This document shows positions 15,286-50,294 of a DNA stretch of 52,998 bases, one piece after another. Source of the stretch: a virus (Duplodnaviria; Caudoviricetes). The notes beneath the pieces were generated by a model. The model searched no databases, was not told the DNA's origin, and worked only from the letters and a program-made list of their open reading frames with translations. Position numbers and translations under genes: made by a program. The DNA lies in the IMG/VR virus record IMGVR_UViG_3300031659_000011, positions 1-52,998 of that record; one strand, written 5' to 3'. The first letter of the stretch is position 1. Each line of letters starts with the position of its first letter.

Positions 15286-15572
15286 ATCATAATCCTAAAA
15301 ATTGAAAAACAGAAATCGTTATAGCACATAGCTATGGGGTTGTACTAATATTAGTAATACCTTACTATCAGATTTGAAATCCCCGCTAGTACAACTGATG
15401 ATGGCTATGAGTATGCAAGGGTGCGTCCATGTGTCCGCGGAGGGTCCCCCCAAAGAAGTCCAGATGGGACCCTTTATCGCCGTCAGCCGGCGTGCACACC
15501 CCGTCATTTTGCTTTTCGTTTCGCATTCTAAACTTATCATTTAACTTTTATCTTTTAAGGTCCACATTATCC

Positions 15573-15866
15573 CAGCCAATTAGCTATGAGCTATGAGCTC
15601 TGAGCTCTGAGCTATTAGCCCGCAGCCAATTAGCTCTGAGCTAATAAGGGTCAGGGTGTTAAAGGGTCAAGGTGTTAAAGGGTCAAGGTGTTAAAGGGTC
15701 AGGGTGTTAAAGGGTCAGGGCGTTAGCTGGTCCGCCGTTAGCTCTGAGCTCTGAGCTCTGAGCTATTAAGGGTCAGGGTGCTAGCTGGTCCACTGTTAGC
15801 TCTGAGCTATTAAGGGTCAGGGTGCTAGCTGGTCCACTGTTAGCTCTGAGCTCTGAGCTCAGGGCT
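15573..15866. repeat. Composite tandem-repeat array
   Basis: Runs of 7-bp AGCTMTG, five 16-bp AAGGGTCARGGYGTTA units (15646-15725), and a tandem 44-bp unit (about 15757-15844). Confidence 0.95.
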
Positions 15867-16021
15867 AATATAGGGGGTAGCGCTGCAGCGCTTAAACCAC
15901 AGTGGAGCTCAGCAGTGGGCTAGTGGCTATTATAGAGCTAAAAGCCGTACACTAGGGTAGGGGTGGGGGTGAGATCGTCGCTTAGAGAGCAACTGAGAGC
16001 GTCGCTTTTAGCTTGAGTCAT

Positions 16022-16046
16022 AAAAAAAGGTCCGTTAGGACCTTTT
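16022..16046 (-). terminator. Intrinsic terminator closing the early operon
   Basis: Minus strand AAAAGGTCC-TAAC-GGACC-TTTTTTT. Confidence 0.85.
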
Positions 16047-16091
16047 GGGTAGTTGATCAGCGCCTCGCGTGCGCGTACTTGATCACTCGTG

Positions 16092-16241
16092 TTAGGGGGG
16101 AGGGGTCGGCTCAGCTAGTTTAGCCATATACTTTATAGCGTCGACTTGCTCGGGCCTTACCCATACTTTGAGCTCTACCAGCCCTGCCGCCAGTCTTGCA
16201 TCGCGCAGTCTTTTCATCATAACTTTTTTTGGTATCGGCAT
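16092..16241 (-). CDS. Small basic protein, 49 aa, possible ribbon-helix-helix DNA binder (not in ORF track)
   Basis: MPIPKKVMMKRLRDARLAAGLVELKVWVRPEQVDAIKYMAKLAEPTPPP; GAGGAG RBS. Confidence 0.65.
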   Translation of the reverse strand: MPIPKKVMMKRLRDARLAAGLVELKVWVRPEQVDAIKYMAKLAEPTPPP

Positions 16242-16252
16242 ATCTTATCTCC

Positions 16253-16435
16253 TCAGTTAAATCCAAGCCCGCTATCGTTATATGTAAGGCCGTACTCATC
16301 TACGCCCATATAGCCGAGATCGTTGGCTTTATTTTCGACGGTGTTATTGCTGTCTCCTACGATAATTGCCACAATTACGTTCGTTTCTACGTTGTAAATA
16401 TAGCCCTCCACCGTACCTTTTTTTGGTATTGGCAT
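16253..16435 (-). CDS. Hypothetical protein
   Basis: 60 aa; AAGGAG RBS. Confidence 0.7.
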   Translation of the reverse strand: MPIPKKGTVEGYIYNVETNVIVAIIVGDSNNTVENKANDLGYMGVDEYGLTYNDSGLGFN

Positions 16436-16446
16436 ATCTTATCTCC

Positions 16447-17139
16447 TTATTTAAATTTGATTTGATTTTTAGCGGCGCCATGGGCTGGGAACGCTATTAT
16501 TGTGCTACGCTGTTTGCTGCACATTTGACAGCTAGTGCACGTCACGTCGTCTTTATAAGTGGCAGGGCATATTACTACGTTGTGGCCCGCTGGACTCTTA
16601 AAGTTTGATGTTTGATCTACAGGCACAATAGCGACGACGGGCGCTATATTTAAAGCCATGAGGTCGTCGGCGTGATCTATGTTATTGCCCGACAAATTTA
16701 TCGTGAACCCGTCGCGATTTGCGGCAGCGACTGTGACCCTATTTGCCTTGATTGACATATCGTGATGAGTAAAGCTGATCACCCTGCGGCCTCCGTTTGC
16801 TCGCGTTAGCCGTCGGATCTGCCCTCGGTCCATTACTTCGTCTACGTGATAAAAATCCCCCGAGACATTATGTCTCCAAATAGGCGCGGTCATAGTTTCG
16901 ACTTTGTTAATGAGAGCGTCAAATGTGCCCCCACGCTCCCCCGAGTCTAGCTTATTCCAATTTAGTTTTGTGTGGAATCCCGACTCAGCATAGCAAGGGC
17001 TCTCGTATTTGCTAGTGCTGGGGTTCCACACTCGTTTTAAGGGACAGACTGCAGGACACGTGCTCCGTTGACTGTTAGTGGTGGGCATTGGCCCTGTTTT
17101 AGCGTTTGCTGACTTTTTAACAAATTGCACGAGTTGCAT
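16447..17139 (-). CDS. Cys-rich phage protein (gp88/DUF7227-like, possible Fe-S)
   Basis: SANAKTG, CPxxCP...CYA, WRHNVSGD and CPA...TCxxCxxC...FPAHG motifs. Confidence 0.65.
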   Translation of the reverse strand: MQLVQFVKKSANAKTGPMPTTNSQRSTCPAVCPLKRVWNPSTSKYESPCYAESGFHTKLNWNKLDSGERGGTFDALINKVETMTAPIWRHNVSGDFYHVDEVMDRGQIRRLTRANGGRRVISFTHHDMSIKANRVTVAAANRDGFTINLSGNNIDHADDLMALNIAPVVAIVPVDQTSNFKSPAGHNVVICPATYKDDVTCTSCQMCSKQRSTIIAFPAHGAAKNQIKFK

Positions 17140-17169
17140 TATCTAATCTCCTATTTACTTATAGCTGAT

Positions 17170-17228
17170 GGTCTCATCAGTGCCGCAGAGAGCGGCAGAC
17201 TAAGGGCACTCTGCCCCTAGTTTCGACC
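17170..17228 (-). ncRNA. Hammerhead ribozyme, type II (copy HH1)
   Basis: RNA GGUC-GAAA-CUAGGGGC(AGAGU)GCCCUUAG-UC^UGCCGC(UCUCU)GCGGCA-CUGAUGA-GACC. All core nucleotides and stems I-III are present; predicted cut between 17198 and 17197. Confidence 0.92.
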
Positions 17229-17232
17229 TGTG

Positions 17233-17406
17233 CTACTCTTCTGGGCTATCGCATTTAGTCTCTAACGCAACTAGTGCGTCGCGCTTAGCCAATATAGCTT
17301 CGAGCTCTGGGGTCGGACGCTTGCCCGTTATAATCTCTTCCAGCATGTAGCCCGTTATTAGCTTTTCTTCGATCTCCCAGTACAACTTGCCTAATGTTTT
17401 AATCAT
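17233..17406 (-). CDS. Hypothetical protein, 57 aa, between two ribozymes (not in ORF track)
   Basis: MIKTLGKLYWEIEEKLITGYMLEEIITGKRPTPELEAILAKRDALVALETKCDSPEE; AGGAG RBS. Confidence 0.75.
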   Translation of the reverse strand: MIKTLGKLYWEIEEKLITGYMLEEIITGKRPTPELEAILAKRDALVALETKCDSPEE

Positions 17407-17436
17407 TATCTAATCTCCTATTTACTTATAACTGAT

Positions 17437-17495
17437 GGTCTCATCAGTGCCGCTGATAGCGACAGACTAAGGGCACTCTGCCCCTAGTTTCGACC
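17437..17495 (-). ncRNA. Hammerhead ribozyme, type II (copy HH2)
   Basis: GGUC-GAAA-CUAGGGGC(AGAGU)GCCCUUAG-UC^UGUCGC(UAUCA)GCGGCA-CUGAUGA-GACC; predicted cut between 17465 and 17464. Confidence 0.92.
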
Positions 17496-17498
17496 TCT

Positions 17499-18209
17499 CT
17501 ACACAGATATGGTCAAGCGAGCGTCGGCTAGCACTGACTCTATTTGATCAGTCACGTCTAGCTCACTAGCTACTATTTTAACGATATCGTCTGCGTGACT
17601 AAATATGTCAAAGTCGTCAGCGGGCCTGTAGCCTCCTTCGTACAAAATGCTTACAACTGAGTCCTCAATCATACTCTCATCTATGACGTGATCGCCAAGC
17701 TCAAACTCTCTCGCGCGCTCGTATCCATTATCACTGAGTATGCCTAGCACTCGGTCCTCGAGCTCTTCATCTAGTCCATTATCGCTGATTATGCCTAGCA
17801 CTTGGTCCTCGATCCTTGCCTCTATGTCCTCCGCGTACTCCAGGCACTCGCAGCCGCATCCGTTAGCCTCAATTATACCTAGCACCGCCGCCTCACTGGC
17901 CCCATTAATATAGGGGGTGGTGCGAGGCTCTATAACTTTAAAGCTCAGACCAAAACTGCTGGGGTTAACATGGTCTAGAGTATCTGCGTGCCTGTTTCTA
18001 CGCCCGACCAACTTCCAGTCTTCCATTTTTCCGCCGTATATGCTTGTGTCTATGTCCATTATTATAAAGGGCAGCATAAGCTCACTGTCACTCGCAGAGG
18101 GCCCGCGGACTCCGTCCCCATAATTAAGCATCAAGCCGCTCTGAGTTACTAATGCAACTAGCACCTGTTGACCGTCGTCCTTCCTTAAAAATTTAGTTAT
18201 AGCGCTCAT
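17499..18209 (-). CDS. Hypothetical protein with acidic internal repeats
   Basis: 236 aa; four E-x-x-V-x-x-I-I/L-x-x-x-G units in a D/E-rich C-terminal half. Confidence 0.75.
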   Translation of the reverse strand: MSAITKFLRKDDGQQVLVALVTQSGLMLNYGDGVRGPSASDSELMLPFIIMDIDTSIYGGKMEDWKLVGRRNRHADTLDHVNPSSFGLSFKVIEPRTTPYINGASEAAVLGIIEANGCGCECLEYAEDIEARIEDQVLGIISDNGLDEELEDRVLGILSDNGYERAREFELGDHVIDESMIEDSVVSILYEGGYRPADDFDIFSHADDIVKIVASELDVTDQIESVLADARLTISV

Positions 18210-18421
18210 GACTGCACCTCCGCTGCAATAAAGTCCGCGGTATTTGTAGACGACTCGAGGCTCGGGCTGCTAAGTATCTCAGTGACGTCGCCAACACTCA
18301 TTAGACTTGTATATACATTGCTAGCATAAAAGCCGCCAAACATGTTTGGCGCTCCTTTGTATACCGTTCTCACTTTGTACTTTCCATCTTTCCGTTTGTT
18401 CCCGATTATTGATATTTGCAT
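18206..18421 (-). CDS. Hypothetical protein
   Basis: 71 aa; AGGAG RBS downstream of HH3. Confidence 0.75.
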   Translation of the reverse strand: MQISIIGNKRKDGKYKVRTVYKGAPNMFGGFYASNVYTSLMSVGDVTEILSSPSLESSTNTADFIAAEVQS

Positions 18422-18448
18422 TTTTCTAATCTCCTATTCATGGCTGAT

Positions 18449-18507
18449 GGTCTCATCAGTGCCGCAGAGAGCGACAGACTAGGGGCACTCTGCCCCCAGT
18501 TTCGACC
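18449..18507 (-). ncRNA. Hammerhead ribozyme, type II (copy HH3)
   Basis: GGUC-GAAA-CUGGGGGC(AGAGU)GCCCCUAG-UC^UGUCGC(UCUCU)GCGGCA-CUGAUGA-GACC; predicted cut between 18477 and 18476. Confidence 0.92.
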
Positions 18508-18513
18508 TGTGGG

Positions 18514-18801
18514 CTATCTGGTGGCGGTGGGCGGTCCACCCTCCCATAAATCTAAATCAGCTATGCCCTGTATGTAGTCGGTGGGGTCCTCCATTATCTC
18601 CACCATTTGTCCGTCTTTTATGGCCCAGTATTCTAACTCGGCTGCTACTGCTTCAGCTATCGAGAGATCCCCGTACAGTTCTACCCAGTCCGATCGGTCG
18701 CGGCACTCTAGTGCGCACGCTGCTCCAAATGATACCTCGCGGCGATCAGTTGCTACCGCTTCCATAAATGCAATAAAACTAGATAAGTCATTGTTTTTCA
18801 T
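18514..18801 (-). CDS. Acidic hypothetical protein, first gene of the early operon
   Basis: 95 aa, D/E rich. Confidence 0.65.
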   Translation of the reverse strand: MKNNDLSSFIAFMEAVATDRREVSFGAACALECRDRSDWVELYGDLSIAEAVAAELEYWAIKDGQMVEIMEDPTDYIQGIADLDLWEGGPPTATR

Positions 18802-18835
18802 CGTTATATACCCTGTTGTTGTTATGTGAGATCTA

Positions 18836-18864
18836 ATTATTACATATAAAGGGTATGTGGTAAA
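18836..18864 (-). promoter_or_regulatory. Putative sigma70 promoter of the ribozyme-containing operon
   Basis: TTTACC-N17-AATAAT in an AT-rich context upstream of the first gene. Confidence 0.5.
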
Positions 18865-19026
18865 GACTTACTATAGTTATTTATGGGCTGGCTGGGGCTG
18901 TTTATATATTGGCGTCGGATTAATGGCGTGCAATAAAGCCACTGGGGCTGCAGCGTTTAGCGCGTAGGTAAGTGGAGGCTCGGCTAGGGTTAGTAGGTTG
19001 GCGGCCCCTCTGTGTGAGCCTAGGAC

Positions 19027-19152
19027 CGCTGTTGGGCTAATCGCTGTTGGGCTAATCGCTGTTGGGCTAATCGCTGTTGGGCTAATCGCTGTTGGGCTAA
19101 TCGCTGTTGGGCTAATCGCTGTTGGGCTAATCGCTGTTGGGCTAATCGCTGT
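19027..19152. repeat. Perfect 15-bp tandem array
   Basis: CGCTGTTGGGCTAAT x8 plus 6 bp. Confidence 0.97.
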
Positions 19153-19179
19153 CTGACAATTGATTGACAATTGCCTGAC

Positions 19180-19206
19180 AGCTCTGAGCTCTGAGCTCTG
19201 AGCTAT
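19180..19206. repeat. 7-bp AGCTCTG tandem repeat
   Basis: AGCTCTG x3 followed by AGCTAT; same unit as in the 15.6-15.9 kb array. Confidence 0.9.
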
Positions 19207-19314
19207 AAGCAAACATCAATAAGTCGGTCGCCCCCTAAAGCCCCATCCAATCATAAATCCACGTGAGAGCACACTCGCTATGTGCCTCTACTAACAAAAA
19301 GACTACAAGAGCCA

Positions 19315-19655
19315 GTGTGTCCTTTTTAAGGCCCTTTAATATAAATATCCGCCCCAAGGGCGGTATATATATATGACACACACCACCGTTTTACTTAGTC
19401 TTTAGATTTCAATGACTTACGTTGGACTCCCGTAACTCCCGCACACCCACCCGCGTCATATAAATCAATGACTTAAAATCAACTCCCGCATCAACAACCT
19501 ATTTTTGGAGGTACATTTACACGTGCGGAGGTTAAAACGTATATAATTCAACAGCTTAAAATCAACTCCCGCATTAAAAGGCCATCCAGCCGCATTAAAA
19601 GGCCATCCAGCCGCACATATGAAGCTAACTACCGCAGTAGTTCCGCACGTAAAAA
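19315..19655. other. Origin-like non-coding region
   Basis: GC hairpin in an AT-rich tract, IHF-consensus sites, a 34-bp imperfect direct repeat and ACTCCCGCA iteron-like motifs. Confidence 0.45.
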
Positions 19656-25199: not shown

Positions 25200-25241
25200 T
25201 CTGGGACTGACCAAATCGGCAGCAATTAGGAGATTAGATAA

Positions 25242-26006
25242 ATGTTAATGTACAACAGTAAGAACGAACGCCACCTTTCGGAACTTGAGCTAGGCTTTTT
25301 GCAAACCCCAAAAGCACTAGGAGCTTTCCACAAGCCCTATCCTTTCAGCTCTTATATGAATGACATTAAAGATGCGTTTGACCGCGAAGGCCTCATAGTA
25401 TCGAAGGAAGAGTACGTCGTATCTAAAGATGACAATAGATTCTTCGGCACCCTCGCTATCTCACCTCAGACTACCCACAGTAACTTAATAGAATCTCAGG
25501 ACTGGGAACTATTGGTGGGCGTGAGGGGGTCGCACGACCAGCGTATCCCTCGGGGGATGGCAATTGGTAGTCATGTATTTGTTTGTTCTAACTTGATGTT
25601 CTCGGGTAACATGAGCACCTTTGCTACCAAACAGACTACTAACATAGCCGCTCGCTTACCCCGTCTTATACGTGATTCAGTTGCCCGCATCCCCGCCCTC
25701 GCAGAGCTTCAGGAGAATAAATACAATCAATTTAAAGAGCGCATTATCACTGGCGGGGATGCTGACACACTACTACTAGACATTCACCGTCGGGGTGGTA
25801 TGTCGGCGGCCCAGCTAGGCGTAGCTGTTAGCGAGTGGGATGCCCCTAAATATGTAGAGCATGGCAGCTACGGGTCTTCTCTTTGGAGGCTAATGAATGC
25901 CTGCACTGAGGCTCTGAAACCTCGGGGCGACAACGCCAACCACCAAATAGTGGCTGATCGTAGCGCCATAATTGACCAGCGCGTATCTGCCTTCGCTACC
26001 TGCTAG
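25242..26006 (+). CDS. DUF932-family protein
   Basis: SHD......G..VFVCSNL motif. Confidence 0.7.
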   Translation: MLMYNSKNERHLSELELGFLQTPKALGAFHKPYPFSSYMNDIKDAFDREGLIVSKEEYVVSKDDNRFFGTLAISPQTTHSNLIESQDWELLVGVRGSHDQRIPRGMAIGSHVFVCSNLMFSGNMSTFATKQTTNIAARLPRLIRDSVARIPALAELQENKYNQFKERIITGGDADTLLLDIHRRGGMSAAQLGVAVSEWDAPKYVEHGSYGSSLWRLMNACTEALKPRGDNANHQIVADRSAIIDQRVSAFATC

Positions 26007-26021
26007 ACCTCCAAACCCCTT

Positions 26022-26094
26022 GCGCCAACGCGACCTTCCTCCCGCGTTGGCGCCTTGCCTCGCCGCTCATAATCTTGGGCCGCGGGGCTTTTTT
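26022..26094 (+). terminator. Two hairpins followed by a T6 tract (terminator, possibly sRNA)
   Basis: GCGCCAACGCG-ACCTTCCTCC-CGCGTTGGCGC, then GCCTCGC...GCGGGGC-TTTTTT. Confidence 0.6.
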
Positions 26095-48206: not shown

Positions 48207-50294
48207 TTATCCTACTGCCACCATATCCTCAGCTAAACTGTCGCTATATAAGGGTAGGTCATCTTGGTTATTAGCCGCGTTTACTTGTGCGGCTTTCCCG
48301 TTCAGGATTTCAAGCATCTCATCCCACGTTTCCTTAACATATGGCTTAGTGTGTATGGGGTGGTCAGAATCAAAAACTGCATCATCGCTGAATACTTCAC
48401 CATTAACGCCGTACAGACGATGGTTAGTGGTATCCATAGTGTAGTAAGTATCAAAAGGATCAACTAGCTCGGATCGGTCTGCTTCAAATACATACTTCCA
48501 AGTTCCGTCCTCTAAGACAAAATGCTCGTCTGTCATAATGGTGCCGTTGTAGTTATAAAAGTCTCTGCTACTTAGACCCGTTCTAGTTTTCAGAACCGTA
48601 CCCCCCTGCACCTTATCACCAACCTTAATATCTTCGACTACTTTGTAGGCGCCATCGGCCATGCAGAATAGAGTGCCTTTAGCAAAACAGCCTGAGCCAT
48701 CTCCGCCACCGACTCCACCACTGCCACCACGACCACCACCATAGTTGCCACCGCCTCCATTATCGTCTCCACCTCCATTATATCCGCCGCCCTCTCCATC
48801 TCCGCCGCCGCTATCACCGCCACCGCCCCCATTAGATGGAGGCGGTGGCGGAGGCGCAGGTGTGGGGTCCCCAGCTTCAGGGGGTCTAGGAGTAATATCC
48901 GTTCCGTTGCTAAACTCAAAAGTAGCGTTAGCTGAATATAACAGTGTAGCTATCATCTTAGACGCTACTTCAGGGTCGTCGCTGTTGGCTATGATAGTCC
49001 CCATATCAGCATACAGCTGCATAACTATATTGCCGTTTATTGAGTCCATGTTCCTGTCGCTAGCCCACTTAGCCTCTAAAGCTGCCACTTCTGCGGCTAG
49101 CTGAGAGTCCATACGCATTAACTGCGCATCTAAGTCGGCTTGGTAAGCCCCAAATTCTTGGTCGTTCATGGCCCCAGCGTATAGCTTAGCGGCGTTATTT
49201 TCAGCTTCTGCATTGAACTTATTAGTCGCGTTTATTTCCGACGCGTTAAAAGCTGCAGTGTCATTTTCTTCTGTAACATTAAACTTGTTAATGTCTGTTT
49301 CAGTATTGATATTGAACTGGTCAGTAGCGTTACCCTCACCAGCATTAAACTTATTCGTGTCAGTTAAAAGACCCGCGTTAAACTTACTGGTGTCTTGGTT
49401 AGCTAATGCGTTAACTCTGTCGGCTTCGTTAGTATATCCTAAGTTAGCTAAATCCATCTCAGCTATCATCTGCGCGTCTTGCTGCGCGATAGGTAGAGAG
49501 GCGTCGATAGCCGCACCATGTGCTGCGCCTACCGCCATACTTGAGTTAAGCATTCCCCTAGCGTTCGACTGCTGGTTAGCTGCGGCCTGAGCCCGTTGCA
49601 TATAAGCGCTGTCGGAGCTTAGCAGCCCCGTCATGCGGTCTTCAACGGTGCTAGATACGTTCCCTTGGGAGGCATCATATCCCGCGTACTCCGATACCCC
49701 TGCCTCCGCGGTGTTGACTTCTGCCGTGCTCGCGGGGTTTACCTGACCAGCTTCAACAGTCTGAGCAGGGGCTGAGGTTGTAACCTCAGCTTTAGTGGCG
49801 CTGGGGGCCTTGACTTGTACGCTTCCTGCATCTAGCTTTGGCACCTCGTACCTATTGCCACCACCTGAGTCAGGTGGGGGAGGCGCGGGTGGGGTGTCTG
49901 CTGGTCCGCTATCATATACAGGTCCCCAAGTGTAGGGCGGGTGACCTAAATCATTCCTAGGGATAGCCGGCATAGGATAACCCTTGCTAGGAGTAGCCGG
50001 CATAGGATAACTCTTAGGAGGATTATGGGGCAAAGGATAATTCTTATGGGGCATCTCACGGGGAGGTGGCGAAGGCCTCCCTACCGTGAACTCGTTAGTA
50101 AAGGTGGGGGCCTTAGGTTTAGCCGCCCGAACTGGCGCTGGAGCGGGAGCCGCAACAGCCTTAGGGGGCGATACGGGCGCATGTCTAGTCTTCTGAGATG
50201 GGCCCAATGGGCGCCCGTCCGGACTTTGGCGTCTCCCGTTACTGTTGCGGGGCGGCGACGGGGCTGCGTATGTTTCTTTAGGATGTCTAGGCAT
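48207..50294 (-). CDS. Virion-module protein with N.FNA repeats, Pro/Gly linkers and a C-terminal Hint domain
   Basis: G/CFAKGT...DG..K.VEDIKVGD.V, TDEH block B, and YTMDT.NH motifs. Confidence 0.75.
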   Translation of the reverse strand: MPRHPKETYAAPSPPRNSNGRRQSPDGRPLGPSQKTRHAPVSPPKAVAAPAPAPVRAAKPKAPTFTNEFTVGRPSPPPREMPHKNYPLPHNPPKSYPMPATPSKGYPMPAIPRNDLGHPPYTWGPVYDSGPADTPPAPPPPDSGGGNRYEVPKLDAGSVQVKAPSATKAEVTTSAPAQTVEAGQVNPASTAEVNTAEAGVSEYAGYDASQGNVSSTVEDRMTGLLSSDSAYMQRAQAAANQQSNARGMLNSSMAVGAAHGAAIDASLPIAQQDAQMIAEMDLANLGYTNEADRVNALANQDTSKFNAGLLTDTNKFNAGEGNATDQFNINTETDINKFNVTEENDTAAFNASEINATNKFNAEAENNAAKLYAGAMNDQEFGAYQADLDAQLMRMDSQLAAEVAALEAKWASDRNMDSINGNIVMQLYADMGTIIANSDDPEVASKMIATLLYSANATFEFSNGTDITPRPPEAGDPTPAPPPPPPSNGGGGGDSGGGDGEGGGYNGGGDDNGGGGNYGGGRGGSGGVGGGDGSGCFAKGTLFCMADGAYKVVEDIKVGDKVQGGTVLKTRTGLSSRDFYNYNGTIMTDEHFVLEDGTWKYVFEADRSELVDPFDTYYTMDTTNHRLYGVNGEVFSDDAVFDSDHPIHTKPYVKETWDEMLEILNGKAAQVNAANNQDDLPLYSDSLAEDMVAVG

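Follow-up and report, generated by a model that had tools for sequence, protein, structure and literature searches.

We analysed a 52,998-bp stretch of DNA (hereafter, the window), the complete IMG/VR virus record IMGVR_UViG_3300031659_000011 (Duplodnaviria; Caudoviricetes), and found on its minus strand three nearly identical copies of a type II hammerhead ribozyme, each lodged between genes of an uncultivated marine phage resembling SU10. We call them C, B, and A, in the order in which they would be transcribed. Their sequences and predicted structures confirm the three elements as type II hammerheads, for which self-cleavage is predicted. In the reading that we favour, and that we regard as probable, the active ribozymes cut one polycistronic phage transcript into separate linear messages.

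The three copies share the layout GGUC-GAAAC-stem III-GUC^-stem I-CUGAUGA-GACC, where stem III has 10 bp (counting the pair A15.1-U16.1) and a GAG loop, stem I has 6 bp and a loop of 5 nucleotides (nt), and the caret marks the cut. All of them have the core sequences CUGAUGA and GAAA, the pairs A15.1-U16.1 and G10.1-C11.1, and the GUC cut site (Table 1). Loops close stems I and III, and stem II is open; the structural descriptor finds 4 bp in stem II, 10 bp in stem III, and 6–7 bp in stem I. Stem II is identical in all three copies, and the differences elsewhere preserve pairing: C-G or U-G (with the U in copy B) at position 1.3 of stem I, and A-U or G-U as well as G-U or G-C in stem III. The trio is beyond chance expectation because a 31-nt pattern matched three times in the window and never in 100 shuffles, and because the structural descriptor retrieved only these three sites from the window and a single match in total over 20 shuffled windows. 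A search of the whole window against Rfam (E up to 1) returned no further ribozyme. The copies are on the same strand of a record bearing phage genes, and they flank one open reading frame (ORF) and two ORFs, respectively. Each ribozyme begins 3–6 nt past the preceding stop codon, and 27–30 nt separate its stem II from the Shine-Dalgarno (SD) motif and start codon of the next gene.

Table 1. Positions of the ribozymes and of the associated features in the window (RBS, ribosome-binding site; MFE, minimum free energy).
Feature	Position	Strand	Details
ORF95, gene upstream of hammerhead C	18514..18801	-	stop codon 6 nt before the ribozyme
Hammerhead C, type II	18449..18507	-	cut after C18477; pattern and descriptor; Rfam Hammerhead_II 23.7 bits, gathering score 37
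1012-nt unit, cut site C to cut site B	17465..18476	-	ORF71 (18421-18206) and ORF236 (18209-17499), overlapping
Hammerhead B, type II	17437..17495	-	cut after C17465; pattern and descriptor; model R1 130.8 bits, a self-match by construction
267-nt unit, cut site B to cut site A	17198..17464	-	RBS and ORF57 (17406-17233)
Hammerhead A, type II	17170..17228	-	cut after C17198; pattern and descriptor; in a 76-nt context, the hammerhead is the MFE fold
Competing hairpin CUGAUG-AGAC-CAUCAG	17165..17180 (A); 17432-17447 (B); 18444-18459 (C)	-	predicted by folding
Leader of the downstream DUF7227 gene	17137..17164	-	A/U-rich, with SD AGGAG (17152-17148) and AUG (17139-17137); from sequence
Sigma-70-like promoter match	18836..18864	-	possible start of the transcription unit; consensus match only

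The 31-nt motif, searched exactly or nearly so, had no match in viral contigs, and a relaxed version had none in metagenome contigs. Likewise, blastn of positions 16400–19300 matched no phage of GenBank, and a search with the large terminase revealed no related locus. The DUF7227 protein encoded downstream of copy A led to one related locus (L004), in which model R1 detected no hammerhead. We obtained the ribozyme subfamily by searching viral contigs with the pattern CGAAAC, gap, GTC, gap, CTGATGAGACC, which retrieved at least 136 stretches; all the subfamily counts given from here on are among the matches listed. The triplet GGT, which the pattern does not demand, precedes CGAAAC in 118 of the 130 unique hits with flanks, and this confirms stem II. 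A stricter descriptor, applied to all 116 contigs listed for the pattern, located hammerheads in 101 of them, at least 196 in total, of which 172 are unique. The other 15 contigs have either chance matches to the pattern or stems with mismatches that the descriptor rejects. Of the 172 unique hammerheads, 151 have a stem II of 4 bp, 162 have the cut triplet GUC, and 156 have the core CUGAUGA. Stem II is GGTC/GACC in 126 of the 172, most of which were chosen by a pattern that fixes GACC.

We assessed covariation with an alignment of 56 model hits (52 distinct), fitted to model R1, in which stem III is correctly placed and stems I and II are one column off. Applied to the 52 distinct relatives, the correctly placed hammerhead structure pairs 90.8% of the cells, against 67.4% in shuffled alignments and at most 51.5% when the structure is slid along the alignment. 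Both sides change in 15 of the 20 pairs. The covariation score (0.477, against 0.122 when shuffled) was reached by none of 500 shuffles and is above that of every slid control. In these comparisons among relatives from viral contigs, covariation supports all three helices.

The genomic layout of the trio also recurs in the subfamily. An SD-like motif followed by a start codon lies within 60 nt past stem II in 162 of 171 cases (median 22 nt), against a mean of 44 of 171 for shuffled tails. In each of the 101 contigs, all hammerheads lie on one strand. Within arrays, the 95 spacings range from 217 to 2488 nt (median 516), so that the 267 and 1012 nt of this locus are typical. Among 71 contigs with about 5 kb of sequence, the descriptor found no hammerhead in 10, one in 30, two in 16, and three to ten in 15. 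The share of contigs with a single hammerhead is an upper bound, given that the descriptor is strict and detects type II only. By these sequence counts, the trio is an ordinary member of a large phage subfamily whose ribozymes often occur in co-oriented arrays.

Possibly the only new detail of the locus is a hairpin that competes with the catalytic core. In the three copies, the bases directly past stem II are AUCAG, which can pair with the CUGAU of the core; the resulting 6-bp hairpin is incompatible with both the core and stem II. This is the MFE fold of copies B and C. The predicted fraction of hammerhead-competent molecules is 65% for the minimal 59-nt ribozyme and falls to 4% when the five bases are added. 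Of the 172 subfamily members, 34 have a 6-bp arm of this kind, a number that drops to 3 of 172 in a control in which the tail is read from 25 nt farther along, and the AUCAG hairpin recurs in loci L011, L022, L038, L050, L059, L073, and others. AUCAG clearly outnumbers every other 5-mer that follows GACC and occurs in 26 of the 118 members with a U at core position 7, where about 0.1 would be expected. When position 7 is a C, only 2 of 62 members have the hairpin; the four cases of this combination in all have GUCAG (three) or AUCAG (one). Covariation within the hairpin is weak, with p = 0.13 for the pattern sets alone and p = 0.003 when two copies from one contig are included, and nothing was seen on alignment A2, where the core is invariant. 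A literature search aimed at such a hairpin found no published description of one that sequesters the core. In the accessible part of Perreault et al. 2011 (PMC3088659), the AUCAG tail goes unmentioned, whereas it is present in all three copies here.

We infer that the ribozymes cleave in vivo, that the competing hairpin has a role in this process, and that the stability and translation of the messages are affected. The transcript would cover ORF95, ORF71 and ORF236, ORF57, and the DUF7227 gene and beyond, with each ribozyme occupying the gap from a stop codon to the next RBS. Cutting would occur during synthesis. The upstream message would then end in the 10-bp hairpin of stem III with a 2',3'-cyclic phosphate, and the downstream message would start with a 5'-OH and the stem I hairpin, followed by an A/U-rich leader with its Shine-Dalgarno motif. 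Once transcribed, AUCAG would pair with the CUGAU of the core, and the resulting hairpin would pull apart the 4-bp stem II. We propose that the products would therefore separate, making the cut effectively irreversible. In addition, the competing hairpin would give the downstream message a second hairpin in its leader. Processing of this kind would yield separate linear messages that have structured ends and are insulated, in stability and translation, from the neighbouring genes. As far as the available text of Perreault et al. 2011 (PMC3088659) goes, three prophage arrays were cut at all sites in vitro, and processing into single-gene messenger RNAs (mRNAs) was proposed; this view is repeated in the part of a 2019 review that was available.

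Several observations weigh against the processing of the transcript into linear messages. At equilibrium, the competent fraction of the uncut precursor (60 nt upstream plus the AUCAG tail) is predicted to be at most 0.044. Since the hairpin dominates in this precursor, efficient cutting would need a co-transcriptional window or tertiary contacts that folding ignores. No copy reaches the gathering score of Rfam RF02276 (Hammerhead_II): in a local search, copy C has E = 0.057 at the score given in Table 1, and A and B are unlisted at E up to 10. The pseudoknot of type II ribozymes, which joins loop I to the bases immediately following stem II, is absent, as there is no complementarity of 4 bp or more. 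Finally, the putative coding status of the cargo ORFs that have no relatives is based on ORF length and RBS alone.

The preliminary description of this region had proposed that the RNAs between successive cut sites are excised and could circularise into protein-coding circles. Much of its groundwork was borne out. The cut sites and unit sizes that it gave, 18476-17465 (1012 nt) and 17464-17198 (267 nt), agree exactly with the sequence, as do the contents of the units, an RBS and a 57-amino-acid (aa) ORF in the shorter and two ORFs in the longer; the latter two overlap and have 71 and 236 aa. Hammerhead cleavage leaves 5'-OH and 2',3'-cyclic phosphate ends; by this established chemistry the units would carry such ends, as had been stated, and these suit both hammerhead reversal and ligation by an RtcB-type enzyme. 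A circle would also restore a complete hammerhead at the joined ends, given that each of stems I and III is a hairpin in itself and that stem II is common to all copies. We considered near-identity of the copies as a requirement for circles and rejected it, because only stem II must match, and this is a trait of the subfamily. Neighbouring hammerheads are frequent, with at least two within about 5 kb in 31 of the 61 related contigs that have at least one, and the accessible part of a metatranscriptome survey (Lee et al. preprint) describes an apparent 286-nt circular RNA, near the 267-nt unit in size and make-up, with one type II hammerhead and matches to 13 marine-sample CRISPR spacers. We nevertheless find it improbable that hammerhead reversal or a host RtcB-type ligase turns the 267-nt and 1012-nt units into translatable circles of RNA. 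In type II ribozymes the cut lies between two closed hairpins, and thus the ends of a unit meet via the 4-bp stem II only. For the 267-nt unit, the predicted ligation-competent fraction (stem II formed and core free, ignoring tertiary contacts) is 0.019, and for the 1012-nt unit it is 1.8e-5; the pair probability of the competing hairpin is at least 0.94 in the former and, for five of its six pairs, at least 0.91 in the latter. We recognised no RtcB, Rnl, or kinase-phosphatase family among the 59 ORFs scanned in this record, which is about 66% complete. A single hammerhead is found within about 5 kb in 30 of the 61 related contigs, and pairs are therefore dispensable for the function of the subfamily. 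The 267-nt unit is not viroid-like, with 55% of the whole paired, and 49% of its inner 199 nt (z = -1.47). In the portion of Perreault et al. 2011 (PMC3088659) that was accessible, circular or spliced products were deemed possible and none was detected (data not shown there), and the available part of a 2026 paper assigns the hammerheads of infectious circular RNAs nearly all to type III. Assemblies can also imitate circles: a 293-nt DNA contig (17200-17492) starts and stops inside a stretch identical in A and B. In summary, the double cleavage proposed in the preliminary description is plausible, and the circles are unsupported in view of the type II layout, the competing hairpin, and the lack of a recognised ligase. 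Circularisation is chemically possible, and the evidence, much of it from predicted folds, leans against closure by the ribozyme itself; ligation of the unit ends by a host RtcB is possible. A more elaborate scenario appears very improbable to us, namely that a host RtcB-type ligase closes the units (267 nt, 1012 nt) into translatable circular mRNAs, that the AUCAG hairpin guards these against re-cleavage, and that some of the marine 'viroid-like' circles with a single type II hammerhead and CRISPR matches are such phage circles and not RNA replicators.

The AUCAG tail could instead lock the core, making cutting conditional or partial until a trigger, e.g., a ribosome or a protein, melts the hairpin; the ribozymes would then be regulated switches and not constitutive sites. 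This would fit the MFE folds of copies B and C and the drop of the competent fraction from 0.65 to 0.04 in the presence of the hairpin bases, and the enrichment of AUCAG past stem II described above implies that selection for the hairpin seems real. We still consider such a switch unlikely. The ribozyme is complete before its tail is transcribed, and co-transcriptional cutting can come first. The hairpin is missing in about three quarters of the subfamily and arrays mix both forms, which suggests a modulating rather than an essential role. Its covariation is weak, with the lower of the two p-values obtained only with the two copies from one contig. The repeats of 93 nt that include the ribozyme and the RBS might also act mainly as DNA, i.e., as portable junctions for swapping orphan cassettes by homologous recombination, with RNA cleavage being secondary. 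Over these 93 nt, including the RBS, copy A is 96% identical to copy B, and the genes in between are unrelated; the orphan cargo genes between the repeats have no relatives in searches of phages and of 5.8 billion proteins, and the ribozyme module is flanked on both sides by tandem-repeat arrays. However, none of the contigs of four DNA runs (X1, X3, X4, and X5; positions 15500–19500) joins across the repeats, even if short contigs break there and could not show a join, and the core conservation and stem covariation across the subfamily point to selection on RNA. We judge it rather improbable that the repeats serve chiefly in this way, a reading that is in any case compatible with processing. 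Neither the switch nor the recombination junctions conflict with the cutting of the transcript into linear messages. The tandem-repeat arrays bracket a module of 3.3 kb at 15563-15872 and 18997-19224; they contain a near-perfect 15-mer, CGCTGTTGGGCTAAT, with about nine starts at ~19012-19161, 16-mers at 15630-15834, and heptamers of the GAGCTCT type on both sides. An 84-nt contig of run X5 joins 15613 to 19181, and we took it as a repeat artefact because the shorter side has only 21 bases, which lie within the heptamer repeats.

The phage elements can be compared with an engineered device. RiboJ, an insulator derived from a type III satellite ribozyme, places a hammerhead and a hairpin just upstream of the RBS. 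It strips the upstream context from the message and gives it a defined 5' end; the phage elements are similar in layout, but they are natural, of type II, and arrayed. They share with the type II family of Rfam (RF02276) the core, the GUC cut site, and the circular permutation, in which stem II is open and the other two stems are closed. They differ from this family in their score (23.7 bits against a threshold of 37), in having a fixed 4-bp GGUC/GACC stem II instead of one of 1–2 bp, and in lacking a pseudoknot of loop I. Such a pseudoknot, with the bases following stem II, is present in the majority of type II motifs according to the available text of Perreault et al. 2011 (PMC3088659). As a separate observation, loop I of copies A and C (UCUCU; 17182-17186 and 18461-18465) is complementary to GGAGA in the SD region (17147-17151 and 18430-18434), 14–18 nt past stem II, and that of copy B (UAUCA) has no match to this GGAGA. 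In A and C, this complementarity may have arisen by chance, or it may represent an anti-SD contact or a type II pseudoknot that has been displaced.

The closest natural parallel that we consider here is the set of clustered hammerheads that, in the accessible part of Perreault et al. 2011 (PMC3088659), flank genes or short blocks in prophages of Clostridium scindens, Azorhizobium caulinodans, and Agrobacterium tumefaciens. As far as this source describes them, those arrays also have co-oriented hammerheads, type II included, in the intergenic gaps of phage operons just upstream of the next gene, and gene-length RNAs are expected in both cases. The present locus differs from what is described there in belonging to an uncultivated marine SU10-like phage, in its orphan cargo genes, and in the near-identity of its three copies. 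Retrozymes and viroid-like circles, as portrayed in the available portions of PMC7761336 and PMC6765202, share with the locus two hammerheads that bracket a unit of a few hundred nt, a junction that restores the ribozyme, and ends that suit a transfer RNA ligase or an RtcB-type enzyme. In these sources, their hammerheads are of type III or I, with an open helix beside the cut that holds the ends, whereas the phage copies are of type II. They are also described as non-coding, highly self-paired, and made of repeated units, and as replicating or retrotransposing. The phage units contain different protein-coding genes, the inner part of the 267-nt unit is not unusually structured, and only the 93-nt portion with the ribozyme and RBS is repeated. 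The features of retrozymes, i.e., a type III or I ribozyme whose open helix pairs the ends and a non-coding, highly self-paired repeated unit, are thus not found here.

The record is classed as linear. It is contained in marine metagenome DNA runs, and encodes the small and large terminase, a portal and an adaptor of the SU10 type, head and tail proteins, and a holin, together with a primase-helicase, a family A DNA polymerase, a single-stranded DNA-binding protein of the Enc34/gp2.5 type, an exonuclease, a Mom-like protein, and an SNF2 helicase. The gene downstream of copy A was assigned to DUF7227 with E = 2.5e-76. ORF57 and ORF236 had no match in tblastn searches against phages, and each matched only itself in a set of 5.8 billion proteins; the search with ORF236 also gave no related locus. 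The promoter-like sites of the window, in total, show no excess over shuffles. Leaders equivalent to the A/U-rich SD leader after copy A are found after copies B and C. The leader TAGGAGATTAGATAA that precedes ATG after the ribozymes also precedes a plus-strand gene at 25242 (25220-25245, +) that has no ribozyme, and is a shared RBS context of the phage, not a part of the ribozyme.

Other observations in the window concern neighbouring or distant genes. Two small ORFs downstream of DUF7227 both begin with MPIPKK, and their 48-nt RBS/start regions (16215-16262 and 16409-16456) are 88% identical. A perfect 18-nt palindrome within ORF71 (18334-18351), CGCCAAACATGTTTGGCG, has a terminator-like score on both strands. 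At 25978-26094 (+), there is a sub-threshold Rfam match to the Xanthomonadaceae small RNA sX13 (36.7 bits against 50, E = 0.0021). A 695-aa protein (48207-50294, -) has a weak match to the Hint domain at residues 536–564 (E = 1.5e-5, below the Pfam cut-off), possibly an intein remnant or a self-cleaving tail-fibre domain.

The array layout has been known since 2011, and the locus is one more example of phage ribozymes cutting an operon transcript. It would be a notable find if a DNA phage made circular RNAs that code for proteins, and the evidence leans against such circles. The 293-nt contig of DNA run X1 (17200-17492) spans exactly one unit, and detectors based on terminal overlaps would flag it as a circle of 267 nt. 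[quoted passage not shown] In the available part of the same survey (Lee et al. preprint), one 'circle' with a pistol ribozyme proved to be a segment of a double-stranded DNA phage with a terminal repeat. About a fifth of the subfamily bears the fold-back tail, which, if real, would equip these phage ribozymes with an intrinsic means of gating the cut or of making it one-way.

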